Positions 1 through 54,402 of a stretch of 54,402 bases of DNA are shown piece by piece. The DNA lies in the IMG/VR virus record IMGVR_UViG_3300036766_002274, positions 1 through 54,402 of that record; one strand, 5' to 3'. Numbering within the stretch: position 1 is the stretch's first letter; each line of letters starts with the position of its first letter. The position numbers were made by a program, and so were the translations under genes. A model generated the notes under the pieces. It saw only the letters and a program-made list of their open reading frames with translations, was not told the origin of the DNA and did no database searches. The stretch comes from a virus. Lineage: Duplodnaviria > Caudoviricetes.

Positions 1-948
1 ATGGCCCAGAACGAACACGACACACGCTCACTTGACCGTCTCCTAGAGACGGTGCATCCCGACCTCAAGGCCCAGCTCCTGCCGCTCAGGCGCGGCATGC
101 GTGCTGCCGGTAACGGCGTGCCTCACATCCGCAACACAATGTACTCCCTCATTCAGTTCGACCTGTGGCTGCCCCACCACGACATCAGCATCGCCACCCG
201 AGCTGACATCGAGAACTGGCTGGGCGAGTGCATGGACAAGTACAGCGTGCCCACGGTGACCCGTCACCGTGCTGGGCTACGCATCTACTACAAGCGACTG
301 AAAGACCTTGGCCTGCGAGCGGACACGCCGATGGACGGCGTGCGGCTGGCAGAGGCACCGGAGTCCGACAAGGACATCGTGCCACTCGCGGACATCCAGC
401 GAGTCTTGGCCGGTGAGGACAAGGCGAAGCGCTACGGGCCAGCAGCCATCCTCTCTACGCTGCTGGACACGGGCATGCGCTCTAGCGAGCTTTGCTCCAC
501 GTTACTGACCAACGTGGACTTCGATGAGCAGACCGTCTTCATACCAGCGATGAACTCCAAGACCAAGAAGGACAGGCTGGTCGGCTACACCGACCAGACC
601 GCCGACAGGCTGGACAGGTGGGTCGCCCTACGTAAGGACAAGAGCAGCCCATGGCTGTTCACGGGCCAGCCCGACAACGGCAGGGCCATGCCCTACACGC
701 GGAGCGGCTTGCTCCAGCTCGTCAAGAGGGTCTTTAAACGCTACGGGCTTGAGGGGATAGGCACACACGACCTGCGGCATACGTGGACAACGCACAGCCT
801 GAACCACCCTGATGCCCGTGAGACAGATATCATGGCACAGGGCGGCTGGAGTTCAACGAGAATGCTCGGGGTGTACGGGCGCAAAGGGAAAGAGCAGCGA
901 GCCGCGCGGGCTAACCGCACGACTTCACCGTTGGCCCAACTCCAGTAG
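1..948 (+). CDS. int: Tyrosine recombinase / phage integrase
   Basis: Catalytic residues in order: R (DTGMRSSEL), K (SKTKKDR), HxxR (HDLRHT), W (GGW), Y (GVY); N-terminal SAM-like region; tRNA directly downstream. Confidence 0.93.
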   Translation: MAQNEHDTRSLDRLLETVHPDLKAQLLPLRRGMRAAGNGVPHIRNTMYSLIQFDLWLPHHDISIATRADIENWLGECMDKYSVPTVTRHRAGLRIYYKRLKDLGLRADTPMDGVRLAEAPESDKDIVPLADIQRVLAGEDKAKRYGPAAILSTLLDTGMRSSELCSTLLTNVDFDEQTVFIPAMNSKTKKDRLVGYTDQTADRLDRWVALRKDKSSPWLFTGQPDNGRAMPYTRSGLLQLVKRVFKRYGLEGIGTHDLRHTWTTHSLNHPDARETDIMAQGGWSSTRMLGVYGRKGKEQRAARANRTTSPLAQLQ

Positions 949-961
949 ACTAAGAGACCGT

Positions 962-1037
962 GGGGCTATAGCTCAGTTGGGAGAGCACCTGCATGGCATG
1001 CAGGGGGTCGTCGGTTCGAGTCCGTCTAGCTCCACCA
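962..1037 (+). tRNA. tRNA-Ala(GGC), CCA encoded
   Basis: 76-nt cloverleaf; acceptor GGGGCTA/TAGCTCC with G3:U70; anticodon arm CCTGC-ATGGCAT-GCAGG; T loop TTCGAGT; ends ACCA. Confidence 0.97.
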
Positions 1038-1067
1038 CCTACCCAGTGCGGATGAACGGAGAGACAA

Positions 1068-1307
1068 GTGAACGACAAGCAAAAGGAACTCCTCTTGAAG
1101 GAGTTCAGGGCCATGGCTTTTGACCGCTACACGTTCAACGTGGAGCGTGAGACCATCCAGCCGGGGTTGACGTTCTCCGCCGAGGCTATGGATGAGGTGA
1201 CGGAGCTGCTCCGCATCTTCGTCGGCGCTCGCGTCCTCCATCGATGGGACACATCGAAAGAGCCTCCAACCGCACTGTCGATTACAGTGGAGGTCGAGGC
1301 TCGGTAG
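1068..1307 (+). CDS. Hypothetical protein (79 aa)
   Basis: GGAGAG upstream of GTG; normal composition. Confidence 0.6.
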   Translation: MNDKQKELLLKEFRAMAFDRYTFNVERETIQPGLTFSAEAMDEVTELLRIFVGARVLHRWDTSKEPPTALSITVEVEAR

Positions 1308-1351
1308 ATAGCCGTAGCAGGGTAGCGCAGACGGCTAGAGCGCATCGCTCA

Positions 1352-1363
1352 TAGCTCCACCAC
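1352..1363 (+). repeat. 12-bp copy of tRNA-Ala 3' end (TAGCTCCACCAC), att-core-like
   Basis: Identical to 1027-1038. Confidence 0.55.
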
Positions 1364-1364
1364 T

Positions 1365-2105
1365 TCATCGCGGCACCCATCTCAATGATGCCTCATCCCA
1401 GTCGAGCGTCACGCCTTGGCCCCAGATAGGTGAGGCATACGTTGACACGGTAGTATAGCCGCTGTATGGCAGGTTCGTCGGCAACGACGGGCTATTGGCA
1501 AAGGGATACGAGTAGCCACTGTACTGAACTGGTAGCGAGATTGGCGTTCTGCTTGTATCAGGCCACGCTGGCCTCTGCTTCTTCGGAGCTACGTGAGCGT
1601 AGCTGTCGATAGGCTTGATGGTGAGACCGGCCAGCTTCTTCTCAGCAATCTCCTGAGCCATCTTCTGGCAGACCGCGTGGTGCCACGCGAGCGTCATGCG
1701 CCAAGCGTCACAGCCGTTGCCGCCAGCGGCGTCACGCAGGTTGATGTCGTCCATGTAGGGGTCTTCCATCCACTGCGTGTCGTGATAGGTCTTGCCGTTG
1801 CTCCAACCGAAGGTGTGGTCACAGCCAGCAGTAAGTAGCTCGCGCTTCAGGCGCGATTCACGTCCTGCCTCCGTGCGAGGCGACAGCGCTGAGTCATCCT
1901 CGTAGGTGATGCCACGCATCATCGCTTCCCTGCCGAACATCGCCTGCGGACTTAGAAGGCGCTCCCTGATAATCCTGTCTGCCTGCTCGTGCATCATCGC
2001 CATAGAGAACTCTTTGTGAGCCTGCTTGCCAGCCCACTGATTGGCGTTAGTGACCGCCTGCTGTAGCAGTTGCTCAACCCAGTCGTATGCTTCGGCGGTT
2101 GTCAT
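1365..2105 (-). CDS. Hypothetical protein (246 aa)
   Basis: Long ORF; ATGA overlap with upstream gene. Confidence 0.7.
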   Translation of the reverse strand: MTTAEAYDWVEQLLQQAVTNANQWAGKQAHKEFSMAMMHEQADRIIRERLLSPQAMFGREAMMRGITYEDDSALSPRTEAGRESRLKRELLTAGCDHTFGWSNGKTYHDTQWMEDPYMDDINLRDAAGGNGCDAWRMTLAWHHAVCQKMAQEIAEKKLAGLTIKPIDSYAHVAPKKQRPAWPDTSRTPISLPVQYSGYSYPFANSPSLPTNLPYSGYTTVSTYASPIWGQGVTLDWDEASLRWVPR

Positions 2106-2845: not shown

Positions 2846-2865
2846 CCCCTCCCGGCTTGATGGAC

Positions 2866-3099
2866 TTAGCTGCCAACGGCAGGGTTGGCTGGCTCTTCAG
2901 CCGGGAGCCCGGTCTTCTCGCGGATGTACTTGTCAGCCGCGAGTATGGCAGTAGTAAGGCCACCAGCGAACACAAGGAAGGGCGTGCCTTCGAGTGCAAT
3001 CGGTGTCTGGGCAATGATGCTGGTGACGAGCGCGCTGGCTGTCAGCGCAGCGACAGTGCGGAGTGCGCGGATAAGTGCGCCCTTTGTGGGGTAGTTCAT
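2866..3099 (-). CDS. Putative holin
   Basis: 77 aa with two hydrophobic segments and a charged C-terminus; in lysis cassette. Confidence 0.65.
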   Translation of the reverse strand: MNYPTKGALIRALRTVAALTASALVTSIIAQTPIALEGTPFLVFAGGLTTAILAADKYIREKTGLPAEEPANPAVGS

Positions 3100-4124
3100 G
3101 AGCCGTACTTCTCTTTCAGATAGTTCATGGAAACTTCCATGATGTCGTAGTTGCCACCGGCAACCTCGTGCTTGACAATCAAGCCCCGCCATTCGCCGCT
3201 TGCCTGCGGCCCTCGGTAGGTCTCGTTGTGCTGGTAGAAGGAGCCGACGACCAAGCCGCGCTGGGTCTGTCCATTGCCAAGCTCGCGGCTCCCGATACGC
3301 TTGCCCTGCTGGTGCCCCATTGTGAACGTGTAGCCGATATTTCTGAGCATGTTGTCCACGCTTCCGGCATAGGCACGTCCGGTGTTGGGGTGGTAGAAGT
3401 AGTGACAGTACGCCACGCCATCGATGGTGACCGGGGTCAGGTAGTCGATAACTTCCCAGCCCAATTCTTTGTCGATGAAGTCCTCGAACCCGATGACACC
3501 TTCGAGCTTCGGGTCGGCGTTGACGGCACGCGTGATGCGGTCTTCGTGGTTGCCGCGAAGCAATACCTTGCGCTTCGGCTTCCAGCCCCCCAGTCCGAAC
3601 TCGAACCGAAGCAAGCCGTCGTTGCCTGCGACAATGTCGTCCTTGTAGCGCTTGCCCTCGAAGTACTTGCTGCCCGGCTTCTCATAGGACGAAAGGCTGG
3701 GCATGTCCCAGTGGTCACCGAGATGAACGATGACATCGGGCTTGCGCTCCGCCGCGTACCGGCCAGCCCAGTACATGTGCTCAAGGTCAACACCGGGCTT
3801 GCACTGGGTGTCGGGGATGATGAGGTGGCTGACGGGGGTCGCCGTCACCGGCTGCCCAATATGCTTGGCAGCGTTCTCGAAGACGCGCCCCCACGCCTCG
3901 GACTTGGCGGTCTGAGATGCGACCTTGGCCGCGTCTTCTGCCTTCATGGCTTCAACCTGAGCGTTGTACCACCGGGCGTTCTCTCCGTGCTTGACCTTGG
4001 CATCAGACGCCATACGGCGCACTGAGTGAGGGTTCACCCCGTAGTAGTCAGCGATGTGCTTGGTGGGCAAGCCAGCCGCGTAGTCAACGAGGATGGAGTC
4101 GAGGTGCGTGTTGTTCAATCCCAT
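3096..4124 (-). CDS. Calcineurin-like metallophosphoesterase with N-terminal HTH-like region
   Basis: IIPDTQ, LGDHWD, GNHE, CHY and MGHQQ motifs. Confidence 0.85.
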   Translation of the reverse strand: MGLNNTHLDSILVDYAAGLPTKHIADYYGVNPHSVRRMASDAKVKHGENARWYNAQVEAMKAEDAAKVASQTAKSEAWGRVFENAAKHIGQPVTATPVSHLIIPDTQCKPGVDLEHMYWAGRYAAERKPDVIVHLGDHWDMPSLSSYEKPGSKYFEGKRYKDDIVAGNDGLLRFEFGLGGWKPKRKVLLRGNHEDRITRAVNADPKLEGVIGFEDFIDKELGWEVIDYLTPVTIDGVAYCHYFYHPNTGRAYAGSVDNMLRNIGYTFTMGHQQGKRIGSRELGNGQTQRGLVVGSFYQHNETYRGPQASGEWRGLIVKHEVAGGNYDIMEVSMNYLKEKYGS

Positions 4125-4151: not shown

Positions 4152-5030
4152 CTAAACTAGAGCCTTCGTCAGTGCGTCACGCACGGCCTTCACACACTCC
4201 CCGGAGTGGTCAATGGCATTGATGGTCGCGTCCTGTAGCCACGGCTTATAAGGGAAGTCCATGCCGATGTCCGGCCTGTCCCCGAACGCGCCTTCCACGT
4301 TCTCGAAGGCGTCCTTCAGGAAGAGCGGGAGCCAGCGGCTCATCGCGTCGGTGAAGAGGTTGTCGAATTGTTCCTGCGTGAGTGCCATGTCTGTCTCCGT
4401 GCCAAGGTTCTTGGCGTAGTTGAGGTCAACCGATTGCCCGGCGACCGTTGTTGTTCCGTTGTACTGCTCAATGGCCGAGTGTTCCCAGCCGCCGTAGTTA
4501 ATGCCGTCTTCATCTGGGTCGCCGTCGTAGTAGCTGTTCCAGAGGGGAAGGTGGCTGAAGCCGGTGTAGCCGGGGAGGTAGCTCCTCCACCACCAGCCAC
4601 CGCTGTACATGCCGGTGACGAGATTGAGCGCGTAGCACGCGTCTTCGCACTGCTGCAAGAAGCGCGTCCTGCCACTGGGCGACATAGCCTGACACGCCGG
4701 GTCTACGTCCTCGGCGTCGAGCCACCACATCCTGATGGGCAGCCCCTTTAAAGCGTCTACGCCTTGGCGTACCTGCACAGAAGCTTCGCCAGCAAAGTAA
4801 AGGTAGATGTACGCATCCGCCGTTCCGCCACGCGTGGCGTTCACCTCGAACCACATCGCCGCCTGCTGCCGTGCCCAGAGGCCAGCGCCACCGGGGTTCC
4901 CGGTGCCGACGATGATGTGCCTGATGCCGAGAGCCCACATCTCTTCCGCTTCAGACCGTGTGAGTTCGCCACCCCACCTCGACATGTCAACGCAGTTGAG
5001 AGACGGGAAGCCTGCTCCGAGCCCTGCCAT
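4152..5030 (-). CDS. Endolysin, GH25 muramidase-like
   Basis: VDMSRW, WLDAED, GMYSG..WW, PLWNSYY, EQY..T, VDLN motifs; TAATG coupling at 5030. Confidence 0.85.
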   Translation of the reverse strand: MAGLGAGFPSLNCVDMSRWGGELTRSEAEEMWALGIRHIIVGTGNPGGAGLWARQQAAMWFEVNATRGGTADAYIYLYFAGEASVQVRQGVDALKGLPIRMWWLDAEDVDPACQAMSPSGRTRFLQQCEDACYALNLVTGMYSGGWWWRSYLPGYTGFSHLPLWNSYYDGDPDEDGINYGGWEHSAIEQYNGTTTVAGQSVDLNYAKNLGTETDMALTQEQFDNLFTDAMSRWLPLFLKDAFENVEGAFGDRPDIGMDFPYKPWLQDATINAIDHSGECVKAVRDALTKALV

Positions 5031-5287
5031 TACTTCATCAACCCGAGGAGGGCGAGCGCCAGCCCCGGAGGGAGCGCTCCTATGAGCGCCCACACGGCTC
5101 GCTGGCCTGCGCTGTAGCCAGAGCTGGTATCGCTCTTGGTCTTGAGTAGGTCAACTTCTTTCCAGAGTTCGCCGAACTTCACGTCTGCCTCCCGCTTGTA
5201 GTCCTTGTGTTGGTCGATGTAGATGTCCAGCTTGGTTTCAATCTTCGCAATTGCTACGAGCACTGGTGTGATGGAATCGTCGGTCAT
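5030..5287 (-). CDS. Small coiled-coil membrane protein (lysis accessory / holin-like)
   Basis: Coiled coil plus C-terminal transmembrane segment, coupled to endolysin. Confidence 0.6.
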   Translation of the reverse strand: MTDDSITPVLVAIAKIETKLDIYIDQHKDYKREADVKFGELWKEVDLLKTKSDTSSGYSAGQRAVWALIGALPPGLALALLGLMK

Positions 5288-5311: not shown

Positions 5312-6595
5312 TTACGGGTTGTAGTAAGGGATGTAGCGGAGGTTGCCGCCGACGTACCACGGGATGCGCCCTGCGTAGGTGCCAAGCGCAGTAGCGTCAG
5401 CATCCGGCGACGTGAACGCGCCGTTTGACGTGACCGAGAACTGTACCTGCGATGCGTTGTCCAGTACCTGAAACGAGTTAGACCCGGCCGCGTCGTTGAG
5501 GTTGATGGACAGGACAGTGCCTGTGCATTGGATCGAGTTGGTTTGGTTGCCTATGTTTGTTGAGTAGCCGGGGAAGAACTTTCCGTAGGCCGAGACGCCC
5601 AGTGAGTCACAGACGACACTCCCGCCGTTACCCCCGCGACCATACAGGGTGGCATCTTTCCCAGAAGGGGCCCCGAAGAAAATCCCAGTGGAAGTGGCCC
5701 AAATAGACCCTACATCGACGCCGCCCACCTTCCACTTGATGCTGTCTCCGAACGACCCCGCGCTAACAAGCGTGATGCCAGTGCTGTCCCAAAAACTGCC
5801 GTCAGCGTCGATAATCTTCCCACCAGCCCCGAGTGTAATTGTTCCAGAGACAGTAAGCGCACCCAAGTTCATCGTGCCGCCAGAGTTACCGAGTGTGCCA
5901 GAAATGGAAGCGCCATTAACTGTGCCAGCAGCCGAAAATGTAAGCGCGCCAGTAGTTATCGAAGAAGCGGAGAAGTTCGACACAGTGATACTTGCACAGT
6001 TCAGTGTGCCCGACGTGATACTAGCAGCACTAAGCGTGCCAGCGAAGGTTCCCGTCGCAGCACTCAGTGAACCTGCGAATGTACCAGAGGCAGCAGACAG
6101 TGCGCCACTGAAGGTGCCGCCACCGTTGACGCTGAGTGCAGCGCCACCGGCTGCGCTTGCAGCCGCGTAGGGGATACCCGCCGTCGTCGGGTTACTGATG
6201 GTCACACTGCCCTTGATGGTCAGTGTCGTGCCGTCCCACGTCAGGCCAGACGTACTGCCCGCGTTGCCAATCCTGAACTTCGGCGTGCCACTGTCGTTGC
6301 CCAGCCAGAAGCCATCGTGGGCCACGTCCGCGAAGGTGGTCATACCCTCTTTGATGTTGCCGCCTGTACCGATGGTGATGCCCGACGTGACACTCATGGC
6401 TCCGGTCACGGTCAGGGCACCAGTGTTGGCCGAGACAGCCGCCAGCTCGCTCACGTCAATCATGGATGACGTGATGCTCTTCGCCTTTAACAGTGCAGGG
6501 GAGATAGTCCCCGGCCCGAGCGCGCTCCTCTGGGGGAACGCGCCGTCGAGGAAGTCGTTCTTGAAGTCGATGAGTTCCTGAAGAATCCTGTCCAT
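5312..6595 (-). CDS. Tail fibre / host-specificity protein
   Basis: G/S/T-rich with GTFSGALSAA-type repeats and GFWLG..GTPKFRIG..LTWDGTTL motif. Confidence 0.75.
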   Translation of the reverse strand: MDRILQELIDFKNDFLDGAFPQRSALGPGTISPALLKAKSITSSMIDVSELAAVSANTGALTVTGAMSVTSGITIGTGGNIKEGMTTFADVAHDGFWLGNDSGTPKFRIGNAGSTSGLTWDGTTLTIKGSVTISNPTTAGIPYAAASAAGGAALSVNGGGTFSGALSAASGTFAGSLSAATGTFAGTLSAASITSGTLNCASITVSNFSASSITTGALTFSAAGTVNGASISGTLGNSGGTMNLGALTVSGTITLGAGGKIIDADGSFWDSTGITLVSAGSFGDSIKWKVGGVDVGSIWATSTGIFFGAPSGKDATLYGRGGNGGSVVCDSLGVSAYGKFFPGYSTNIGNQTNSIQCTGTVLSINLNDAAGSNSFQVLDNASQVQFSVTSNGAFTSPDADATALGTYAGRIPWYVGGNLRYIPYYNP

Positions 6596-6599: not shown

Positions 6600-8606
6600 T
6601 TAGGCTCCCGAGTCCGCTCTGTCGAAGACCACGCTGGCTTCCATCTCTGCACCGCCAGCCACGACACCGGGCCGCTCATGCCGCGTCGGCCTGTACTTGA
6701 GTGTGCTCATCGAGACGTAGAAGCTGTTGCCCAAGAAGTCCTCGTAGAGCATCTGGCCCTCTTCGCTGCGCATGTTTTCGAGCTGCGTCTTGATGACAGG
6801 AGCTTTAAACGCAGACGGCTTGCCAGCGTTGTTCTCAACGTGGTCAGCCACGCGGATGCCAGCCCCGATGGTCGGAAGATACTTGAACCGCACACGCTGA
6901 TGATGGTCGAACACGCGCAGTACGGGCGTGCTCGCGCCGGTACTGGTCAGCCGCCAGCGCAGCACGATGCTGCGCGACGACACGTTGGCGTAGTCGAGCT
7001 TGGACAAAAGCACACCTGAGCCACCGGAGCCGGTGTCTCCCAGCGCAGTGAACGTCGCGCCGTTATCAAGGGAGTACGCGACCGCGACCTTGAAGGACGC
7101 ACCTGTCGTGCCTTCGGTCTGGAACGCCACCCAGAGGTGCCTCTTGCTCAGGCCGGGGAAGGCGGCGCGCGTGATGGAGGTGTATAGGTCGCCAGTCGTT
7201 GCGAAGCTTGTGCCGGTAGACTCATTGAAGTCGGCGGGAATCTCCATGATGTACGTGCTGGTGACACTGGAGATGGTCGTGCCCCAGTAGAGGCGTGTGC
7301 CCACGCCGTTCGGCGCTGCGGTGAGGCCGTAGTAGGTGCGACTGTTAGCGATGTATGTGTTGTCTTCCCATAGGCACTCGAACGCATATCGAGCCCCGGA
7401 GAGCTTGGTGCCCCGGAGAAGAACCACAGAGGCCACGGTGCGGAGGGTGGGGACACGTACCTGAGCAAGTACATAGACATACTGGTTGTCTGCTCCCAGT
7501 CCAAGGATGGACTGCACTGAGAACCCTGACTGCTTGGAGAGCTTCAGAGCCGGGTTGGCACCGGTGCCGGGGTCATAGGCGTAGACCTCGGGGCCGACCG
7601 AGTAGTAGAGGAGGTCGCCACCAGAGGTGACGAACTTGAAGTTCTCTGGGCTGGGCTTGTCCTTCCACTGCCAGAACGTCTCGGTGACGTTCTGCTGGGA
7701 ATCGATGGCGTAGCCCGCGCTCTGTTTAAAGGCGTAGAGGTAGTCGTTTGCGGCGAAGAGCTTCGTAAACGGGTAGGTACTGTCGCCCACCTCGGGGGCC
7801 GTGATGCTACCCACTGTTGCCGTGATGGGGCCAGCAGCGCCGTCAGTGGTCTGGTCAACCGTGTAGAAAATCTTCTGGGTATCCACTGCCGTGAAGAGCG
7901 TGCCACGCACGGGCACGGCAAACTTCGGCCTGCCGAGTGCATCCGAGTACGGAGAGTGGTCACGCTTCGTCGGTGACCACGTCGCGCCTGCCGTCACGTC
8001 AGCCTGCGTCCAGAAGTCCACCACGTTGGCGGCGACCTCGGTCGGCGTGCATATCACACCGATGCCATTGAAGACACAGAAGTCCGTGATTGGCTTCGCG
8101 TTCGGCTCAGTCCAGACCAGCACCCATGCCGTGGTACTGTCCGTGGTGATGCGCCTGTAGAGGTAGACGCTCGACCAGCAGAAGTCGTAGCGCGTCAGCG
8201 TGGCGTAGTTATAGTAGGTGTAGAACCCGACGATGGCCGTGCCTGCCGAGCTGGGCAGTGCTAGTGGCGTCAGCGCCGGTGGCGCAAGGTACGCGTGGCC
8301 GTCGATGTGTGTGACCACGCCTGAGCCCCACCAATAGCCAGAGCCGTTCTTGTAGTCGTACTCAAGCTGGCCGAGACCGGCAGTCCAGTCGCCCTGAGCG
8401 AATGGTGTGTCCTTCTCGACCTCGAACTCCTGATGAGACTGGAACTCATCAGAGCCGTCACGCCCACCGTAGAGCCGTGGCCCGCCGACCTCATCAATGG
8501 TGAGCTGCTTGGACTGCCCCTCTGGCGAGACCAGCATGAAGCCGTACGTGCCCGCATTGGCACCAGAAGCGATGGTGACCTGAACGTCCCAAGGGAATGC
8601 CGCCAC
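6600..8606 (-). CDS. Podovirus tail nozzle / tail tubular B-like beta-rich protein
   Basis: 668 aa, beta-propeller-like composition, SLDNGATF Asp-box; position between adaptor and fibre. Confidence 0.6.
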   Translation of the reverse strand: MAAFPWDVQVTIASGANAGTYGFMLVSPEGQSKQLTIDEVGGPRLYGGRDGSDEFQSHQEFEVEKDTPFAQGDWTAGLGQLEYDYKNGSGYWWGSGVVTHIDGHAYLAPPALTPLALPSSAGTAIVGFYTYYNYATLTRYDFCWSSVYLYRRITTDSTTAWVLVWTEPNAKPITDFCVFNGIGVICTPTEVAANVVDFWTQADVTAGATWSPTKRDHSPYSDALGRPKFAVPVRGTLFTAVDTQKIFYTVDQTTDGAAGPITATVGSITAPEVGDSTYPFTKLFAANDYLYAFKQSAGYAIDSQQNVTETFWQWKDKPSPENFKFVTSGGDLLYYSVGPEVYAYDPGTGANPALKLSKQSGFSVQSILGLGADNQYVYVLAQVRVPTLRTVASVVLLRGTKLSGARYAFECLWEDNTYIANSRTYYGLTAAPNGVGTRLYWGTTISSVTSTYIMEIPADFNESTGTSFATTGDLYTSITRAAFPGLSKRHLWVAFQTEGTTGASFKVAVAYSLDNGATFTALGDTGSGGSGVLLSKLDYANVSSRSIVLRWRLTSTGASTPVLRVFDHHQRVRFKYLPTIGAGIRVADHVENNAGKPSAFKAPVIKTQLENMRSEEGQMLYEDFLGNSFYVSMSTLKYRPTRHERPGVVAGGAEMEASVVFDRADSGA

Positions 8607-12374: not shown

Positions 12375-12376
12375 CT

Positions 12377-44007: not shown

Positions 44008-44008
44008 A

Positions 44009-46192: not shown

Positions 46193-46221
46193 TTGACAGG
46201 GTGTCTGTTAGACGCTATATT
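46193..46221 (+). promoter_or_regulatory. Sigma70 promoter TTGACA-17-TATATT
   Basis: Near-consensus boxes and spacing, upstream of GAGGGAG RBS. Confidence 0.75.
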
Positions 46222-46249
46222 AGTATCTCAGACAGAGGGAGTAAGCAGC

Positions 46250-47191
46250 ATGTACGGACACGGTCTTTCACGCCAGATGGAAGAGTGGCACAAGGAGTTC
46301 AACGGCGCCGCCGGGGAACCGGCATGGGATGCCTTCCTCGATGACTTCCAGACACTCCTCGCCAGCAAGGCTCGGGAGTTGTCTGAGGAGCACGACAACG
46401 ACGGCAAGTTCGGCATGAGCAAGGCTGGCGGCTGCACGCGAGCGGCTGGTTTAAAGCTTCTCGGCGCAGAAGGCTCGCCGTTCTCTGGCTCCACGCGGGT
46501 CACCTTCTTCATCGGCCACCTCGCTGAGTGCATAGGCATCGCCTCACTCAGGGCGCTGGGTTATGAGGTCGGGGGCTCGCAGCAGGCCGTCACGATTGGC
46601 GAGTTCATGCACTCGTACTCAGACGGCATCATTGCCGACTTCGACGGCGAGGAGACCATCCTCTCCGTTAAGAGCGCGGCCTACAAGAAGTCCGGGCAGG
46701 AACGGCGCGGTGCCAACCGCATCTGGGTGCGCCGTGGCTTCCCTGAGCTTCCCTTCATGGGAGTCAAGGCCAGCCAACCCGGTCACTGGGTGCAGGCACA
46801 GGCCGAGATGTTCGGAGCGAACATCAACCAAGCCCTCTACCTCGTGGTTGCGAAAGACATCATCAAGGCCATGGAGGAAGACCCCTATCTCGGGGATGGC
46901 GACGGCGAGGGTAACGGCTCGCTCACCTTCTACTCCGAACTCATCAAGTACGACGACCAGTTCTGCCAGAACACGTTGCTCCCAGTTTGGGAGCAACAGT
47001 GGGCAGACGTTCAGGCCGGACGCCCCGGCGCACCAATGTTCTACAACAAGGCAGGCGAGTTCGTTCGCCTGACCGCATCCAGCCAGTCATGGAAGCCCAA
47101 CGCGGACAAGACCGGCACCTACAACCCCTGCAACTACTGCGACTTTGTCGGTGCGTGTAAGACAGACCTTGTGTCTGGATTCCGCAAGTAG
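46250..47191 (+). CDS. Cas4-like PD-(D/E)XK exonuclease
   Basis: GCTR..F.IGH..E, SDG, SVKS, Q-rich helix, CNYCDF...C Fe-S staple. Confidence 0.75.
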   Translation: MYGHGLSRQMEEWHKEFNGAAGEPAWDAFLDDFQTLLASKARELSEEHDNDGKFGMSKAGGCTRAAGLKLLGAEGSPFSGSTRVTFFIGHLAECIGIASLRALGYEVGGSQQAVTIGEFMHSYSDGIIADFDGEETILSVKSAAYKKSGQERRGANRIWVRRGFPELPFMGVKASQPGHWVQAQAEMFGANINQALYLVVAKDIIKAMEEDPYLGDGDGEGNGSLTFYSELIKYDDQFCQNTLLPVWEQQWADVQAGRPGAPMFYNKAGEFVRLTASSQSWKPNADKTGTYNPCNYCDFVGACKTDLVSGFRK

Positions 47192-47648: not shown

Positions 47649-47722
47649 GCCGGTGTCGTACAACGGTAGTACGCCTGTTTTGTAAACAGGAAGTGTAGGT
47701 TCAACTCCTGCCACCGGCTCCA
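47649..47722 (+). tRNA. tRNA-Thr(TGT)
   Basis: Acceptor GCCGGTG/CACCGGC; anticodon arm CCTGT-TTTGTAA-ACAGG; T loop TTCAACT; ends TCCA. Confidence 0.92.
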
Positions 47723-47725: not shown

Positions 47726-47799
47726 GCCGCGCGTCGTCTAAGTAGGACACTCACCCTCGATGGTGAGAGATGAGGGTTCAATCCCCTCCGTTCGGCCCA
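47726..47799 (+). tRNA. Atypical tRNA, identity undetermined (8-nt anticodon loop)
   Basis: T arm GAGGG-TTCAATC-CCCTC; anticodon stem CTCAC/GTGAG around CCTCGATG; CCA end. Confidence 0.7.
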
Positions 47800-48871: not shown

Positions 48872-49039
48872 CCGCCACTTCTAAGTGGGTGCAGTTCATC
48901 ATTGAGTACCCCGTCAATGCTGCCGATGCCGCCATCCTAGAGGTACTTGAAATTGCACGCAGCACGGGCTATGCCCGCGTTGTCAGTGTCGCTGCTCCGG
49001 TGGCATCGCCGGATGACGACAAAGAATGGACAATCGACG

Positions 49040-49969
49040 ATGACTAGTTGGCACAGTTACCCAAGCATCTTCAACTTCGGCCACAAGGCCGTACGCGACA
49101 TCTTCTCCAAGCCGGTCATCGTAGAGGAGAAGGTAGACGGCAGTCAGTTCAGCTTCGGCCTCATCAATGGCGAGCTTCGGCTCAAGTCCAAGAAGCAGGA
49201 GTTCACCGTCGATACGGCACCGACCCTGTTCAGGCTCGCTGCCCAGACCGTCAAGAAGCTCAGTGATGACCTCGTCCCCGAGTACACGTACCGTGGCGAA
49301 TACCTGTCCAAGCCGCAGCACAACACGCTGGCCTACGACCGTGTGCCGGGGCAGCACATCATCATCTTCGACATCAACGATGCCGAGGAGTCCTACCTCA
49401 CTGTCAACGAGAAGCGGTTCGAGGCACTCCGCCTCGGGCTTGAGTGCGTGCCGATGTTCCTCGCTGGCGACAGCGTCACCTACCAAGACATCCTTGGTTT
49501 CCTCGAAACCACGAGTGTTCTCGGTGGTCAGAAAGTAGAAGGCGTGGTCGTCAAGTCCCTCTCTCTCTATGGAGAGGACAAGAAGCTCCTTATCGCCAAG
49601 CACGTCAGTGAGGCGTTTAAAGAGATTCACGGCGGCGAGTGGCGCAAGAACAACCCTGCGAAAAGTGACATCATCGCCGGGCTTATCGCTCGCTACGGTG
49701 GCCCTGCTCGCTACGCCAAGGCAGTCCAGCACCTTCGTGACGAAGGCGTCCTCGAAGACAGCCCGCGTGACATCGGCAAGCTCATCCCAGAACTCAAGCA
49801 AGACTGGGCGAAGGAGTGCGAAGACGACGTGAAGGCCATTCTCTGGACGCACTTCCGAGACCAGATTGAACGCGGCGTTCTTGCCGGGTTCCCGACGTGG
49901 TACAAGTCCGAGCTGCTCAAGCAGCAGTTCGGTGAGCCAGAACTTGAAGAGGAGCTGATAGCAGCATGA
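49040..49969 (+). CDS. ATP-dependent RNA ligase (Rnl2-like)
   Basis: YPSI, EEKVDGS (motif I), RGE, IFDI, EGVVVK, IAKHVSE.FKE. Confidence 0.85.
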   Translation: MTSWHSYPSIFNFGHKAVRDIFSKPVIVEEKVDGSQFSFGLINGELRLKSKKQEFTVDTAPTLFRLAAQTVKKLSDDLVPEYTYRGEYLSKPQHNTLAYDRVPGQHIIIFDINDAEESYLTVNEKRFEALRLGLECVPMFLAGDSVTYQDILGFLETTSVLGGQKVEGVVVKSLSLYGEDKKLLIAKHVSEAFKEIHGGEWRKNNPAKSDIIAGLIARYGGPARYAKAVQHLRDEGVLEDSPRDIGKLIPELKQDWAKECEDDVKAILWTHFRDQIERGVLAGFPTWYKSELLKQQFGEPELEEELIAA

Positions 49970-50208
49970 CCGCACCATACGCAGTCCGTGACCTCCCGCT
50001 CCGTAAGCAGCGGGTCAACGACAGCCCGCAGGCATACGTGGCACCGACAGGTGTCGTCCTCTGCGACCAGTCCAACAAGGTCTGCCATCTCACACAGGCC
50101 GAGGCCACTATGGTCATCACGAAGCTGGGGCGACCCAGTCTTCGCGCCTACCAACACACCGCCCCGAAGGGGTGTGGCTACTGGCATATCGGGCACGTTA
50201 TCTCATGA
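49966..50208 (+). CDS. Hypothetical protein (80 aa)
   Basis: K....EA..RAY..GCGYWHIG motif. Confidence 0.55.
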   Translation: MTAPYAVRDLPLRKQRVNDSPQAYVAPTGVVLCDQSNKVCHLTQAEATMVITKLGRPSLRAYQHTAPKGCGYWHIGHVIS

Positions 50209-50363
50209 GCACAACACTCACGAGCTTCTGTGTCGGTATGTCGCTGGGCATGTCGCTGATTGGCCTTGGTGCCATCCTCACATCGCCAATCACCGGCATC
50301 ATCTGCATGCTTGGTGGCGTCTGCTGGGGCATCATCGCCGCCGACCTCGGAGGTGGAAAGTGA
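50205..50363 (+). CDS. Small two-TM membrane protein
   Basis: Hydrophobic; ATGA overlap. Confidence 0.5.
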   Translation: MSTTLTSFCVGMSLGMSLIGLGAILTSPITGIICMLGGVCWGIIAADLGGGK

Positions 50364-51220
50364 CCGCTCTCGACATCACCTACACGCGTGGTTTGCCGGG
50401 CTCCGGCAAGACCACGTGGGCACGGGAGTTCCTCAAGAACAACCCCGGTTACAAGCGCGTCAACAATGACGAGCTGCGCCTGCTGCTCGATGGCGAACAG
50501 TTCAACCCGAAGAACGAGGGCTTTGTTCGCATTGCCCGCAAGGCACTTATCGCCGTTGCCCTCGGTGACCGCAAGAACGTCCTCGTGGACAACTGCAACC
50601 TGTCCCCGAAGGCCGTCGCTGAGCTGGAGAACATCGCCGCTGCGCACGGTGCCACCACCACCGTCAAGGACTTCACTGACGTGCCGTTCAGTGAGTGCAT
50701 CAGGCGTGATGCCCTCCGGCAGTGCCCCGTTGGCCGCAAGGTCATCAAGCGCATGCGCGATGACTTCCTCCGTGACCAGAAGGTCGTGTATGAGCACGAC
50801 AACAGCCTGCCCAAGTGCATCCTCGTAGATATGGATGGCACGCTCGCTATCCATGGTACGCGTGGAGTCTACGACTTCGAGCACGCTGGCGAAGACGCTT
50901 TAAACGAAGCGGTCGCTTGGCAGGTAGCACTCTGCCACGAAGCTGGCATGAGCGTCATCATCGTTACCGCTCGCGAGGCGAAGTACCGAGAAGTCACACG
51001 CGACTGGCTCAATAAGCACGAGGTGCCCTACAACGCCATCCACATGCGTGGCACCTTCGATGACCGCGAGGACAGTATTGTCAAGCGCGAGCTGTACGAG
51101 AACCACATCGATGGCAAGTACAACGTGCAGGCTGTCTTCGATGACCGCAACCGCGTCGTCAACATGTGGCGCGACCAGCTCGGCCTGACAGTCTTCCAAG
51201 TCGCTGAAGGCGACTTCTAG
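50360..51220 (+). CDS. pseT: Polynucleotide 5'-kinase/3'-phosphatase (T4 PseT-like)
   Basis: RGLPGSGKTTWA, N.D.LR, VDNCN; HAD DMDGT, TAR, D..VK, FDDR..VV.MWR. Confidence 0.92.
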   Translation: MTALDITYTRGLPGSGKTTWAREFLKNNPGYKRVNNDELRLLLDGEQFNPKNEGFVRIARKALIAVALGDRKNVLVDNCNLSPKAVAELENIAAAHGATTTVKDFTDVPFSECIRRDALRQCPVGRKVIKRMRDDFLRDQKVVYEHDNSLPKCILVDMDGTLAIHGTRGVYDFEHAGEDALNEAVAWQVALCHEAGMSVIIVTAREAKYREVTRDWLNKHEVPYNAIHMRGTFDDREDSIVKRELYENHIDGKYNVQAVFDDRNRVVNMWRDQLGLTVFQVAEGDF

Positions 51221-51222
51221 GG

Positions 51223-51555
51223 GTGACACGCAAGCCACCCGCGCAGAAGCGCGTGGTATCTCCTGCCCGTCTCGCGTACCTCAAGATGAGGCGCGAGAAG
51301 GCTCAGGCAAGGCTGGTGAACTGCGAGGTCAACGACTTCAAGCTCAGCCAGTGGGTGCCTATCCTCAAGCAGTTCGACTACACCTGTGTCTACTGCCTGA
51401 AGCGCACGGGACGCCTCACTAAAGACCACGTCGTGCCCCTCCACCGGGGCGGCAATCATACGAGTAGCAACCTTGTCCCGGCCTGCCGTTCCTGCAACAG
51501 CAGCAAGGGCAAGCTCAGTCTAGAGGAATGGTTTGGTCTTGCGGCGTGTGCTTGA
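51223..51555 (+). CDS. HNH endonuclease
   Basis: CVYC..DHVVP..GG.H...NLVPAC..CN..K. Confidence 0.9.
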   Translation: MTRKPPAQKRVVSPARLAYLKMRREKAQARLVNCEVNDFKLSQWVPILKQFDYTCVYCLKRTGRLTKDHVVPLHRGGNHTSSNLVPACRSCNSSKGKLSLEEWFGLAACA

Positions 51556-51581
51556 CACGCACGGTATACGTAAGCTAAGCT
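51552..51581 (+). promoter_or_regulatory. Sigma70-like promoter TTGACA-18-TAAGCT
   Basis: Upstream of the 51606 gene. Confidence 0.5.
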
Positions 51582-51605
51582 AACGGCAGTGAAAGAGAGA
51601 ATGCA

Positions 51606-52637
51606 GTGACAGGCTTTTTTGGGAGCATCCATACGGTGTATCTGGCTGGCCCGATGACGGGCTTCCCGGATTTCAACTACCCCAAGTTCCACGAACTCGC
51701 GGACAAGATTCGCGAGCATGGCTTCATCGTCCGTAACCCGGCCGAGAGCTTCAACGGTGACCAAGCGCAGTCACGCGCCACCTATGCGGTGCATGACGCC
51801 GAACTCGTCGCGACATGCGACGCCGTTGCCGTCATGGATGGCTGGGAGAACAGTGCTGGCTCACGCTTCGAGACGCACGAAGCCGCACTCATCGGCATCC
51901 CCGTCATCGACGCGGACATCCTCGCGCTGAGCGGTGTTGTCGTCGGTATTCCCGTTGACAAGCACGGAGGCCCGCTGCCAAGCGGTGTACCTGTGACACC
52001 GCCCGGCTGGTGGGATACCAAGCGCAACAACAAGCGTGAAGAGCGCGTCAAAAACACGCCATTCTCCATGTCGCTGGTGCCGGGAACGTCGGAGATTCTG
52101 GGCATCTCCCCGCAGGTCGGCACCACGAATGCGAACGGCACCTCGTTTAAAGCCGTCAATCTGGTTGACGAAGACGGCGACATCACGCCGCTCGTCTTCC
52201 GCGAGCGCGTCAAGTCCAAGGTACACGACTACCTCGGTGAGGTAGACGGCGGCGGGTACAAGTCCAGCATGGACAACCCGGAGAAGCTGCCGCTCTGGCT
52301 CATCCCCAACGCACTCGGGCAGGCCGCAGCACGCGCGCTCCAGCACGGTGCTGCCAAGTACGCACCGAACAACTGGCGGCGCGGCATGCCGTACAGCGAG
52401 GTCTACAGCGCACTCCAGCGCCACCTCACGGCGTGGCTCGAAGGCGAGAACTACGACGGCGAGTCCAGCCTCAACCATCTCGACCATGCGGCGGCATGCC
52501 TGTCGTTCCTCTGCGAGTACACGGCACAGCCGCACTACGCCAAGTTCGATGACCGCTTCAAGCGGAACACACCGCGCGTGCCAACCCCGCCGTCGCTGCC
52601 ATTTTCCAGCATCGGCACAGTTGAGTGTGCATCTTGA
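51606..52637 (+). CDS. DUF4406 (NDT-like) fused to DUF5664 dATP/dGTP diphosphohydrolase-like domain
   Basis: YLAGPMTG..NYP.F..NPAE..CDA..GWE.S.G..E; GA.KY..NNWR.G..S..RH..W..GE..D.ES...HL.HA. Confidence 0.82.
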   Translation: MTGFFGSIHTVYLAGPMTGFPDFNYPKFHELADKIREHGFIVRNPAESFNGDQAQSRATYAVHDAELVATCDAVAVMDGWENSAGSRFETHEAALIGIPVIDADILALSGVVVGIPVDKHGGPLPSGVPVTPPGWWDTKRNNKREERVKNTPFSMSLVPGTSEILGISPQVGTTNANGTSFKAVNLVDEDGDITPLVFRERVKSKVHDYLGEVDGGGYKSSMDNPEKLPLWLIPNALGQAAARALQHGAAKYAPNNWRRGMPYSEVYSALQRHLTAWLEGENYDGESSLNHLDHAAACLSFLCEYTAQPHYAKFDDRFKRNTPRVPTPPSLPFSSIGTVECAS

Positions 52638-52888
52638 GCCTCCAAGCCAAGGGCAACCTCATCGCCCTCGCTGTGTGGATAGCAGCCCTCCTCATACTCT
52701 GCGAAGTCCTGATGGGGCAGTGCGTCACACCGGCAAGGGCCGACGTGTCATCGCAGGATGACCCGGCCAACGTCATCGCCTTGACACCGCCGTCCGGCGC
52801 GTGTCCACTCAGCCCCGGCTGGAACCTCGTCACCCTTGAAGGCAACGCCACACTCACTGGCTGTGGCGTGGTTTGGATACTCAAGTGA
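52634..52888 (+). CDS. Small membrane-anchored/secreted protein
   Basis: N-terminal hydrophobic helix; L.PGWNLV. Confidence 0.45.
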   Translation: MSLQAKGNLIALAVWIAALLILCEVLMGQCVTPARADVSSQDDPANVIALTPPSGACPLSPGWNLVTLEGNATLTGCGVVWILK

Positions 52889-53036
52889 GAGCCAAAGACG
52901 AATACGTGCTCACCAAGGCCGACCTCAACACGCCAGTCGAGCACTGGTGTGGGCAGGGGCTACTCGTTGGCAAGCTCCACCGCCTGTTCATCATGTGCCC
53001 GTCCTACCCGCTATGCCAGCATATCGGTGGCGCGCT

Positions 53037-53426
53037 GTGACGCAAGGAACGGCAGACCAAGTGCCCGGTACGTGCTTCTTCTGCGATGCCGTAGCAACCG
53101 TCAACGTCTACTACGTGCAGCGCTCGCACGTAGGCGTGCGCACCTGTGCACCCTGCATCGGCAAAATCAACATTCTGGCCCACCACTTCGGCAACGAGCT
53201 GCGCTTCTGGGTAGCCATGGAAGACGAAGGCGTACCAGAGGCATTAGAGCCATCCACCATCACTGACAGCGATGTTGGTGATGCAGTCCTCGCCGCCATG
53301 GAGCTGCTCAAGCAGCGCTACGAAAACAAGGGAGCAGACAATGACATCACCGCTACCGCAGAACCCACCCCGGACACGCAAGCCAAGGACGCCCCGGACA
53401 TCGGCGGTGGCCCCGTCATCTTCTGA
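53037..53426 (+). CDS. Zn-finger protein (CFFC..CAPC), start uncertain
   Basis: CxxC pairs; GTGA overlap. Confidence 0.55.
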   Translation: MTQGTADQVPGTCFFCDAVATVNVYYVQRSHVGVRTCAPCIGKINILAHHFGNELRFWVAMEDEGVPEALEPSTITDSDVGDAVLAAMELLKQRYENKGADNDITATAEPTPDTQAKDAPDIGGGPVIF

Positions 53427-53552
53427 TGCCCTACCAGAGGTAGAGACGCGCACGCCATGCCGGGACTGCAACGCAACCGGCATCTACTGGGCGGACTTTA
53501 AATACTACAAGACGTGCAAGACCTGCCACGGGAACCGCTGGGAGCCAGCCGC

Positions 53553-53747
53553 ATGAAGTGGTGGAGCTTACTTAAGCTCCAGACCAAGTGGTTGGCTTGC
53601 CCCAACTGTAACAAGAGGATGCTCACCATCAGTGGTGGGCGTACCGCCAACTGTGGAGGATGCGGTCATAGCCACTCAAGCACGCAGCATTTTCAGGATA
53701 GTCGAAACAATCTACCCACGCCGGTACCGTTCGGCAACGGACGGTAA
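53553..53747 (+). CDS. Zn-ribbon protein (CPNC..CGGC)
   Basis: GGAG RBS, ATGA overlap. Confidence 0.5.
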   Translation: MKWWSLLKLQTKWLACPNCNKRMLTISGGRTANCGGCGHSHSSTQHFQDSRNNLPTPVPFGNGR

Positions 53748-54048
53748 CGGCCAAGGCGGCAGCAGGGCACTTGGGCCTGACGGCTTCTTTGATGACAACT
53801 TCATACCCATGTACGCAGACGCAGGCTGCGTCCTGCACGATGCGTGCCTGACGTGCCCGCTCACGTCCTGCCTGCAAGACGTGAAATCAGAGCCATCCGG
53901 CATGAACCACCGGTGGTCAGTGAACACGGCGCTGGAGCGCCACGTTGAGGCTGGCGGCATCGTCACCGCCTGCATGGCGTCCCACTACACCGGCAAGCAG
54001 GACATCGTGACGACATACGAGGAGGAACTCGAATGTGCAGCAGCGTAA
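53632..54048 (+). CDS. Cys-rich protein (Y.D.GC....CL.CP...C..D), start uncertain
   Basis: Four-Cys cluster. Confidence 0.5.
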   Translation: MVGVPPTVEDAVIATQARSIFRIVETIYPRRYRSATDGNGQGGSRALGPDGFFDDNFIPMYADAGCVLHDACLTCPLTSCLQDVKSEPSGMNHRWSVNTALERHVEAGGIVTACMASHYTGKQDIVTTYEEELECAAA

Positions 54049-54105
54049 CTGACATCCCAGAGGCCCACGAGCATAGGTGGATGTGTACGTGCTAGGAGAG
54101 CAACC

Positions 54106-54402
54106 ATGACCGTTGACTACACCGAGCTAGAGGCGCTGGCACAGGCGGCAGTGAAGGCAACACACGCACTCTTTTTGTGGGAGTGCTGCGACGTGTACCA
54201 AACCGATGAGGCACGAGACCTACAGCAGACAGTCATCAATGCGCGGCTTGCGTTGGGGACTCAGGCCGCTGCTATCCTCGCCCTGCTCGCCGAGCTGGAA
54301 GCGGCAGAAGCCAAACTAGCACGCGTGGGTAAGCACCTCTGTACAGGCGAGTGCTTCGACAAGCAGGGCATTGCCCTGCACTCAGCCTTTAAAGAGGCAT
54401 GA
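54106..54402 (+). CDS. Ead/Ea22-like hypothetical protein
   Basis: AGGAG RBS; EL.ALA.AA..AILALLAELEAAE. Confidence 0.6.
   Translation: MTVDYTELEALAQAAVKATHALFLWECCDVYQTDEARDLQQTVINARLALGTQAAAILALLAELEAAEAKLARVGKHLCTGECFDKQGIALHSAFKEA

Follow-up and report, generated by a model that had tools for sequence, protein, structure and literature searches.

Evenly dispersed TTTAAA palindromes across a temperate phage genome and a SprT-like protein as their candidate reader

Why does a G+C-rich phage genome carry dozens of evenly spaced copies of a word made of A and T alone, and what might read them? We addressed this question for IMG/VR virus record IMGVR_UViG_3300036766_002274 (Duplodnaviria; Caudoviricetes), which we analysed from end to end; its 54,402 bases are referred to here as the window. 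The window is the whole record, is classed as a provirus by IMG/VR, has a CheckV completeness of 100% and a G+C content of 60.2% (an initial annotation of the DNA had estimated about 62%). With an integrase gene at 1-948 and its provirus class, the phage is temperate. The palindrome TTTAAA occurs 35 times between 733 and 54393, at every one of the 35 positions that the initial annotation had counted and at no others, and the description of the pattern as genome-wide holds for a window that is the entire provirus record.

Against these 35 copies, a zero-order model predicts 3.4 and an order-2 Markov model 0.54, an enrichment of about 65-fold, and dinucleotide shuffles (n = 100) gave a mean of 2.06 and a maximum of 7. 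The word had been proposed to persist against codon bias, and this proposal withstood shuffling of synonymous codons: in the 62 likely genes, which make up 91% of the window, 500 shuffles yielded 1.39 copies on average (standard deviation 1.13, maximum 5), compared with 24 observed. None of the other 63 AT-only hexamers is equally enriched. Each has at most 7 copies, the most frequent being ATTTAA (7) and TTAAAT (3), both of which overlap TTTAAA, and AAATTT, TTTTAA and TTTAAT have 0 copies each in the window. Variants of TTTAAA with one mismatch showed no enrichment, their counts being at or below expectation.

Within genes the sites use two frames, and others fall on stop or start junctions or outside coding DNA. 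Twenty-four lie in confident genes, 16 of them as TTT-AAA for Phe-Lys and 8 in the form T-TTA-AAx; the other 11 are junctional, intergenic or in small open reading frames (ORFs) of doubtful status. The initial annotation had pointed to rare codons forced by the word, and the counts agree. Of the 532 Phe codons only 95 are TTT, and of the 718 Lys codons only 99 are AAA, yet TTT-AAA encodes 16 of 33 Phe-Lys pairs; the word also accounts for 8 of the 27 TTA codons. Positions within genes are evenly spread, from 0.21 to 0.94 of gene length, and the large genes of the rightward arm mostly have exactly one copy each. The sites are listed below, with the residues found in two relatives, G001 and L003, where these differ or are spelled otherwise.

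733-738: integrase 1-948 (+), Phe-Lys; Phe-Glu (TTCGAG) in the G001 homologue
4747-4752: GH25 lysozyme-like gene 4152-5093 (-), Ala-Leu(TTA)-Lys
6804-6809: gene 6600-8606 (-), Phe-Lys; Gln-Thr in G001
7725-7730: gene 6600-8606 (-), Phe-Lys; same residues in G001 as TTCAAG
9520-9525: gene 8607-9779 (-), Ala-Leu(TTA)-Asn
10014-10019: gene 9779-10846 (-), Ala-Leu(TTA)-Asn
12376-12381: junction, over the stop codon of 12377-12886 (-) and 2 nt before the start of 12081-12374 (-)
13641-13646: junction, overlapping the start codon of 13231-13641 (-)
14827-14832: doubtful 40-residue ORF or intergenic
17843-17848: gene for a 2457-residue protein, 17366-24739 (-), Phe-Lys; Tyr-Leu in G001
19277-19282: 17366-24739 (-), Phe-Lys
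21188-21193: 17366-24739 (-), Phe-Lys
23193-23198: 17366-24739 (-), Ala-Leu(TTA)-Lys
25262-25267: gene 24664-26652 (-), Pro-Leu(TTA)-Asn
27599-27604: portal-like gene 26942-28918 (-), Phe-Lys; Leu-Gln in G001, Leu-Gly in L003
28049-28054: portal-like gene 26942-28918 (-), conserved Phe-Lys; TTCAAG in relatives
30944-30949: gene 30901-31401 (-), Ala-Leu(TTA)-Asn
32554-32559: DnaB-like helicase 31711-33222 (-), conserved Phe-Lys; TTCAAA or TTCAAG in relatives
33596-33601: 3' edge of ORF 33597-34271 (-)
34962-34967: right after a G+C-rich hairpin, in non-coding DNA or a doubtful ORF
35356-35425: two sites, 35356 and 35420, in the AT-rich divergent region between the leftward and rightward arms
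38625-38630: AAA_5 ATPase 38169-39365 (+), Phe-Lys; Ile-Pro in G001
39953-39958: VWA-domain gene 39389-41404 (+), Phe-Lys
42511-42516: small ORF 42448-42609 (+), Phe-Lys
43151-43156: gene 42812-43441 (+), Phe-Lys
44003-44008: across the stop codon of 43819-44007 (+)
45168-45173: Prim-Pol 44361-45422 (+), Phe-Lys; Ile-Ser in G001
46450-46455: Cas4-like exonuclease 46193-47191 (+), Gly-Leu(TTA)-Lys; Gly-Leu-Lys in G001 as GGCCTTAAA
47800-47805: intergenic, downstream of tRNA-Thr 47649-47722
49616-49621: RNA ligase 48947-49969 (+), Phe-Lys
50899-50904: polynucleotide kinase 49988-51220 (+), Ala-Leu(TTA)-Asn
52146-52151: DUF4406 + dGTP_diPhyd_N gene 51606-52637 (+), Phe-Lys
53497-53502: intergenic
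54388-54393: last ORF 54106-54402 (+), Phe-Lys

Two of the non-coding sites have structured surroundings. Site 47800 had been placed directly after the CCA end of a tRNA; ARAGORN gives tRNA-Thr at 47649-47722 and no tRNA ending at 47799. The bases just before the site, 47726-47799, resemble a tRNA end, with a T arm and CCA, and received no ARAGORN call. Adjoining the divergent control region, the non-coding stretch 34840-35080 contains repeated words of the GGCTTTGG / CCAAAGCC type and a G+C-rich hairpin that ends in site 34962.

The word has sharp edges. At position -1 we counted C 20 times, G 8, A 7 and T never, and at +1 G 21 times, C 11, T twice and A once, as the initial annotation had said of T on the 5' side and A on the 3' side. 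Grouped as 8-mers, the contexts are CTTTAAAC/GTTTAAAG in 19 cases and CTTTAAAG in 7, and GTTTAAAC in 0 of 35. The bias at ±1 reflects coding context; beyond it nothing informative was found, no second word recurs within 60 bp, and the G+C content of the flanks shows no anomaly (0.620 compared with 0.602). The window otherwise shuns short palindromes. All 6-bp palindromes together number 343, where 973 are expected; 17 of the 20 most depleted are absent altogether (7.6-45 expected), and GATC occurs once (190 expected). GCCGGC, CAGCTG, TGGCCA, CCGCGG, GAGCTC, CTGCAG, GTCGAC, CTCGAG, CGATCG, GACGTC and AGGCCT are among those at zero (8-45 expected). The phage is thus under strong pressure against short palindromes, yet retains TTTAAA at 65 times expectation.

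Spacing is also non-random. The mean gap between sites is 1578 bp with a coefficient of variation (CV) of 0.55, compared with 0.97 for random placement (P = 7e-5, 100,000 simulations), so the regularity noted earlier is real and the gaps are not Poisson-like; the eight gaps that had been quoted from 44003 onward were arithmetically right. The largest gap is 4014 bp (P = 0.03), and the closest pair, 35356 and 35420, is 64 bp apart. Phe-Lys pairs that have not been converted to the word lie at a median of 400 bp from the nearest TTTAAA, and random positions at 420 bp. The counts, the codon usage and the even gaps support the view that TTTAAA is a regularly spaced, DNA-level signal that is kept by selection against codon preference. 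Because the sites fall in different frames and in non-coding DNA, and because the palindrome is strict, the word appears to be read on duplex DNA rather than in RNA or during translation. The array very probably represents selected docking sites on duplex DNA for some sequence-specific protein. The initial annotation had likewise argued for a DNA-level signal under selection, and that part stands; the packaging, ejection or nucleoid protein, the nick or modification site and the host self-mark that it proposed as uses of the signal gained no specific support.

How such an array arises can be seen by aligning homologous proteins. The sites came about by substitution, without insertions and with reading frames intact. 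Four lie on conserved Phe-Lys or Gly-Leu-Lys residues, for which relatives use TTCAAG, TTCAAA or GGCCTTAAA, and at least six lie where relatives have other residues (FE, QT, YL, LQ, IP and IS). The conserved pairs have been re-spelled and residues have been changed, and the phage has therefore paid for the word in rare codons and in amino-acid changes.

We gathered uncultured relatives by terminase searches, which found few. L001 and L003, which represent one phage with about 64% terminase identity to the window, have 2 copies of TTTAAA in 4.8 kb and 3 in 15.9 kb, respectively (0.04 and 0.08 expected). The 20.9 kb of L017, which come from a 54.6-kb metagenome contig, contain 7 (0.08 expected). 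TTTAAA is the top or a near-top hexamer in both L001/L003 and L017, and none of their sites is homologous to a site in the window or to one another. The complete relative G001 (50.7 kb) has only 2 copies, and L016 (7.6 kb) and L009 (6.3 kb) have none. Avoidance of CAGCTG, GAGCTC, CTGCAG and GACGTC is common to the window, L017, L003 and L016, and is missing from G001. An excess in related lineages at non-homologous positions marks the array as a lineage trait with fast positional turnover, and such turnover is consistent with selection that favours density and coverage over any individual site. The Phe-Lys at the 27599 column is shared only with the portal homologues P0002 (89% identical) and P0003 (67% identical), which hints at short-range conservation of one site.

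Two other words in these relatives were considered as dispersed arrays and rejected. In G001, GGCCTATAGG had the appearance of a private dispersed word and proved to be a 300-bp cluster: seven CTATAG lie within 300 bp at 23561-23860 of G001 (L007), several of them as GGCCTATAGGCC, resembling an operator or iteron cluster in a control region. In the relatives of low G+C content, L010, L011, L012 and L015 (42-46% G+C), CCCGG[GT] is the most over-represented hexamer (13 copies in L015, 1.1 expected); this excess is strand-specific and corresponds to Pro-Gly codon pairs.

If the word is a docking site, which protein docks? The evidence points to a candidate that the initial annotation did not name, which is encoded by the rightward arm's first large gene:

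37475-38197 (+): candidate reader, a 240-residue divergent SprT-like protein without HExxH and with a C-terminal Cys/His zinc-ribbon-like motif

Of the readers considered this predicted protein is the likeliest, and whether it is in fact the one that reads TTTAAA seems to us evenly balanced. With it as a query, tblastn retrieved 17 actinophage records (25-29% identity, E 1e-5 to 6e-4); nearly all of the 15 actinophage matches listed are annotated as 'SprT-like protease'. The alignment with the actinophage proteins covers a common N-terminal domain and a C-terminal Cys pattern, C..C ... R.T ... W P.C, in which C169, R177, T179, P188 and C190 are invariant (alignment A3). The C terminus is therefore zinc-ribbon-like and is predicted to form a nucleic-acid-binding module. 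At the HExxH column, actinophage proteins have HELIH or HELVH, the window protein TWLAT, and those of L017 and G001 ARMAT and ARLLI. A profile built from the window protein and five close relatives matched 891 proteins at E <= 0.001. Five of the 16 nearest relatives have HExxH, as do 125 of 137 further ones, and Pfam SprT-like (PF10263) matches 4 of 10 sampled profile relatives, 1 of them above the curated cut-off. From this homology and the lost motif, we read the window protein as a putative divergent, catalytically dead member of the SprT-like superfamily. L017 has a 37-40% identical homologue together with its TTTAAA excess, and a site of the respective array lies upstream of the SprT-like gene at 40 bp in phage KeAlii and 46 bp in phage Barnstormer, both introduced below, and at 147 bp in L017.

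Other kinds of reader were sought among the products of the window. Four families of DNA methylases (PF01555, PF02086, PF00145 and PF05063) had no match in its six frames, in line with the initial annotation, which had seen no methyltransferase. Pfam, PHROGs and NCBIfam scans of about 50 ORFs returned no methylase, restriction enzyme or helix-turn-helix protein or repressor. PDB sequence searches with three unclassified ORFs gave nothing usable, and tblastn against phages gave one weak match for 42812-43441 and none for 34120-34599.

The pairing of word and gene could be followed in cultured phages. Among the 17 matches, we picked Crosby, KeAlii and Barnstormer, from three host genera, solely for carrying the SprT-like gene. 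The KeAlii homologue is in turn found in at least 166 phage records from many hosts, from which we took six further gene-carrying phages of other hosts. TTTAAA is absent from Crosby, KeAlii and Barnstormer; the three share a single 8-mer, GTTTACAC, which lies mainly within genes and occurs in both orientations. One of the six further phages, the Dinoroseobacter phage vB_DshS-R5C (R5C), has a related word. The four arrays are as follows.

Streptomyces phage Crosby: GTTTACAC, 41 copies, 0.05 expected; mean gap 1319, CV 0.55, P = 1e-4
Arthrobacter phage KeAlii: GTTTACAC, 23 copies, 0.12 expected; mean gap 1837, CV 0.61, P = 0.007
Microbacterium phage Barnstormer: GTTTACAC, 23 copies, 0.04 expected; mean gap 2096, CV 0.73, P = 0.07
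Dinoroseobacter phage vB_DshS-R5C: GTTTAAAC, 17 copies, 0.04 expected, and 19 TTTAAA; mean gap 4468, CV 0.63, P = 0.03

The two orientations are balanced in Crosby (20 and 21). An array with a TTTA[AC]A core was thus present in 4 of 9 cultured phages with the gene and in 0 of 9 without it (Fisher one-sided p = 0.041). The gene-less phages were Kalimba, Wollypog, Aesir, Nocardia P3.1, Fowlmouth, Papyrus, Shrew, Olliecat and Tunturi_3; among them, Kalimba serves well as a control, since its DNA polymerase is near-identical to that of KeAlii (E = 0.0). Didgeridoo, which has only a 47-residue C-terminal fragment of the gene and no array, was omitted from the tally. In an all-against-all comparison of ORFs, the SprT-like gene was the only one matched in all five array genomes.

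Four Crosby copies, at 2656, 12816, 25023 and 37188, place GTTTACAC exactly between the ribosome-binding site and the start codon (...CGTGTAAACG-ATG on the coding strand). Such copies may also affect translation start or local transcription.

Several observations weigh against the SprT-like protein as the reader. Bordetella FP1 (in its first 50 kb), Psa21-HRN, ECO1230-10, Persinger and FlameThrower have the gene and no such array, and G001 has a homologue (27% identity, E 7.5e-14) but only its 2 copies of TTTAAA and no dispersed word. The survey is small and non-random, with gene carriers chosen for host diversity and controls taken from other tblastn lists, and because the array genomes were reached through the gene, its standing as the only shared gene is partly built in. 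Curtobacterium phage Shrew (PQ868981.1), which lacks a SprT-like gene, has 48 copies of GGTGTGGA where 1.55 are expected, so word arrays as such can occur without the SprT-like protein. The word of the window is the 6-bp core alone, with none of its 35 sites in the form GTTTAAAC, and differs in this from the other arrays; 6 bp is also short for a stand-alone DNA-binding protein. The window has no TTTAAA within 2 kb upstream of 37475-38197. The protein itself lacks the HExxH catalytic motif and has no Pfam match, its AlphaFold2 model is mediocre (predicted local distance difference test, pLDDT, 60.5), and a Foldseek search of the PDB with that model gave 0 matches at E <= 0.001 (best E = 0.26).

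A reader in the host is the main competitor to a SprT-like reader. An orphan adenine methyltransferase, or some other protein specific for 6 bp, would use the word as a mark or handle that is rare in a G+C-rich host chromosome. We consider this unlikely, although it suits several features of the data. A strict 6-bp palindrome without information in its flanks is a hallmark of Type II enzymes, and TTTAAA is the DraI/AhaIII site. The four methylase families are absent from the phage, which as a provirus resides in the host chromosome; the TTTAAA excess tracks the probable host group, as judged by the palindrome avoidance that the window shares with L017, L003 and L016 and not with G001; and G001 has the SprT-like homologue without the array. 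A host reader leaves unexplained, however, the kindred even arrays in phages of Streptomyces, Arthrobacter, Microbacterium and Dinoroseobacter, which have one phage gene in common and no host. Moreover, a phage purged of palindromes (343 compared with 973) should avoid a restriction-type site and not enrich it 65-fold, and the phage has no match to the four methylase families, while the site is enriched, not avoided. A different enzyme of the phage is a less probable reader still. The Endonuclease VII-like protein (28918-29340) or the HNH protein (51223-51555) might use the word for nicks or packaging cuts, or Prim-Pol (44361-45422) for lagging-strand priming. Small phage HNH enzymes that nick with a specificity of 3-7 bp are known, the HNH gene adjoins those for RNA ligase and polynucleotide kinase, and both nuclease genes are present in the window and absent from G001. 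Bacterial Okazaki fragments are similar in length to the mean gap of 1.6 kb, and a palindrome serves both strands. But a nickase acting on both strands of a palindrome would sever the chromosome; L017, which has the excess, showed no Endonuclease VII-like gene in the 20.9 kb analysed; and the Prim-Pol homologue of G001 (36% identity) is not accompanied by any word array. No such gene is common to all five array genomes.

Reading of the word as RNA, with UUUAAA cleaved by a ribonuclease, stalling ribosomes as a rare codon pair or acting as a slippery sequence, we judge to be very improbable. A palindrome does appear in mRNA from either strand, 16 sites are the rare pair UUU-AAA, and most large genes of the rightward arm have exactly one copy. 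An RNA signal would not need to be a palindrome, which only 1 in 64 hexamers is, and would hardly fall in two coding frames, over stop and start junctions and in non-coding DNA, at positions spread evenly through genes (0.21-0.94), or have kindred copies in both orientations, as in Crosby (20 and 21). That the array has no function, and is a by-product of composition, codon usage, mutation bias or assembly, is barely conceivable. The general caution that short words can drift applies here as anywhere, but all null models are off by more than 10-fold, the spacing is non-random, AAATTT, TTTTAA and TTTAAT are missing, the sites are substitutions that leave frames intact, and an independent Logan assembly matches the first 6 kb without differences.

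With the SprT-like protein as the reader, the array could work as follows. TTTAAA would be the docking word, a strict 6-bp site of two-fold symmetry on double-stranded DNA, and selection would act on copy number and coverage, at about 1 copy per 1.5 kb across the phage chromosome. The zinc-ribbon module would dock on the word and so station the protein roughly every 1.5 kb, and the window array would be a version, reduced to a short core, of the GTTTAAAC / GTTTACAC arrays found alongside SprT-like genes in unrelated phages. Spartan-type enzymes are DNA-dependent. With HExxH lost in the lineage of the window, its protein would be a DNA-bound adaptor or roadblock, not a protease; in relatives with intact HExxH the docked protein may be a DNA-tethered protease that patrols the phage chromosome. 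Passages of the Cluster AZ preprint (bioRxiv 10.1101/2025.05.26.655371) liken phage SprT-like proteins to DNA-dependent Spartan-type proteases. The closest pair of sites, 35356 and 35420, lies in the divergent control region, which also allows a regulatory role. R5C is described as lytic in the abstract of PMC5454422, and since it carries a kindred array, prophage silencing alone is not the general function.

We put forward more tentatively, as a possibility that we think somewhat less probable than not, that these arrays belong to a widespread, undescribed system in which a SprT-like zinc-ribbon protein, either a protease or a dead derivative, docks on an evenly written, private AT-core word. 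The protein would be stationed every 1-4 kb and could clear or block host proteins on phage DNA, such as defence nucleases, silencers or covalent adducts. Another possible use is to distinguish phage DNA from the G+C-rich host chromosome. Word and protein would co-evolve, giving GTTTAAAC, GTTTACAC and, in the lineage of the window, TTTAAA. Such a system would provide a role for a gene that is present in at least 166 phage records and is now annotated only by analogy to eukaryotic Spartan. It would explain a genome-wide constraint on sequence that costs rare codons and amino-acid changes, and would represent a new way for a virus to address its own chromosome as a whole. The lineage of the window, which has kept the array while losing the protease motif, would separate docking from catalysis. 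The pairing is testable in manipulable, cultured phages of Streptomyces griseus, Arthrobacter globiformis, Microbacterium and Dinoroseobacter shibae, namely Crosby, KeAlii, Barnstormer and R5C. For annotation, the array illustrates that selection can superimpose information on phage coding sequence in the form of short words.

Phages are known to carry protein-binding words in genome-wide arrays; stoperators, phiC31 repeats and Cluster O dyads are examples. The stoperators of Cluster A mycobacteriophages are bound by the immunity repressor (L5 gp71, Bxb1 gp69); stoperators and the conserved inverted repeats of Streptomyces phage phiC31 are 13-17 bp long and mostly intergenic, and stoperators (13-14 bp, asymmetric) are oriented with transcription. 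The window array resembles them in having tens of copies over a temperate phage genome, about 1 per 1.5-2 kb, and their reader is a phage protein. It differs in that its word is 6 bp long, symmetric and mostly intragenic, and in that no helix-turn-helix repressor was found in the ORFs scanned. HIP1 (GCGATCGC) is an 8-bp G+C-rich palindrome of cyanobacterial chromosomes that is tied to methylases. Like HIP1, TTTAAA is a short palindrome in strong excess, spread through coding DNA and kept by selection or drive; unlike HIP1, it is a phage word, consists of A and T only and comes without a methylase of the four Pfam families in the element. Cluster O mycobacteriophages reportedly have 17-bp dyad repeats (Cresawn et al. 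2015), likewise dispersed symmetric words in a phage genome, but longer and of different sequence, and we know of no link between them and a SprT-like gene. The closest likeness is to the GTTTAAAC / GTTTACAC arrays: a rare AT-core word in a G+C-rich phage, with tens of copies where fewer than 1 is expected, inside genes, evenly spaced (CV 0.55-0.73), with the core TTTA[AC]A and with a SprT-like gene in the genome. They are unlike the window array in that its word is the 6-bp core and its protein lacks HExxH, and in that GTTTACAC is non-palindromic; R5C, described as lytic, further contrasts with a window that is a provirus. What differs from the known arrays, then, is a 6-bp symmetric intragenic word, the SprT-like pairing and the recurrence of kindred words across unrelated phages. 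In the literature outside supplementary files, we found no description of a TTTAAA array or of its pairing with a SprT-like gene, and excerpts of bioRxiv 10.1101/2025.05.26.655371 and PMC5454422 make no mention of a dispersed word.

The array is laid over a genome of two arms. Its leftward genes run from about 35.3 kb to 1.3 kb and its rightward genes from 35.4 kb to the end and then into the integrase, according to the ORF map. The left end of the window is the ATG of the integrase, and the right end is a stop codon. A Logan contig, identical to the window over the first 6 kb, reaches 163 bases past the left end, and the portal protein of the window is also on record on a 59,970-base contig, about 5.5 kb longer than the window, from which it follows that the window is a prophage cut at gene boundaries. 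The only sequencing run found to contain the DNA is that of a sediment metagenome, which is probably the source of the record; no RNA data set with it was listed. A megablast search of 50,697 phage records with 25 kb gave no match, and, as to the host, GTDB genome contigs contained no terminase relative (by terminase alignment) and no exact copy of the tRNA-Ala. The assigned features are as follows.

1-948 (+): tyrosine integrase, starting at the ATG of the window
962-1037: tRNA-Ala(GGC) (ARAGORN)
3096-4124: metallophosphoesterase
4152-5093 (-): GH25-like lysozyme
17366-24739 (-): 2457-residue protein
26942-28918 (-): portal-like gene
28918-29340: Endonuclease VII-like gene
29384-30901: large terminase
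31711-33222 (-): DnaB-like helicase
38169-41404: AAA_5 ATPase (38169-39365, +) with a VWA-domain gene (39389-41404, +)
44361-45422 (+): Prim-Pol
46193-47191 (+): Cas4-like exonuclease
47649-47722: tRNA-Thr (ARAGORN), the second of two tRNAs
48947-49969 (+): RNA ligase
49988-51220 (+): polynucleotide kinase
51223-51555: HNH
51606-52637 (+): DUF4406 + dGTP_diPhyd_N fusion

The tRNA-Ala(GGC) adjoins the integrase, and Logan word depth rises there from about 11 to about 100; part of this tRNA is therefore common to other organisms in the sample. The run of genes at 48947-52637 comprises RNA ligase, polynucleotide kinase, a small HNH nuclease and a fusion of DUF4406, a part that is nucleoside deoxyribosyltransferase-like, with a dATP/dGTP diphosphohydrolase N-terminal domain. 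The first three of these have no counterpart in G001.

Some features of the structural genes are shared in altered form with relatives. The Endonuclease VII-like gene at 28918-29340, which lies between the terminase and portal genes, encodes an N-terminal Cys pair. L003 has three Endonuclease VII-like paralogues (6136-6555, 8760-9221 and 11536-11745) among its structural genes, in the manner of free-standing homing endonucleases. The large terminase ORFs of L003 (3562-6090) and L017 (8228-10960) encode 842-910 residues and contain an in-frame insert of about 0.9-1 kb, between the residues that match about 210 and 166 of the window terminase. The insert resembles an intein or a similar mobile insert, and is missing from L001, which is 99.7-99.9% identical to L003.

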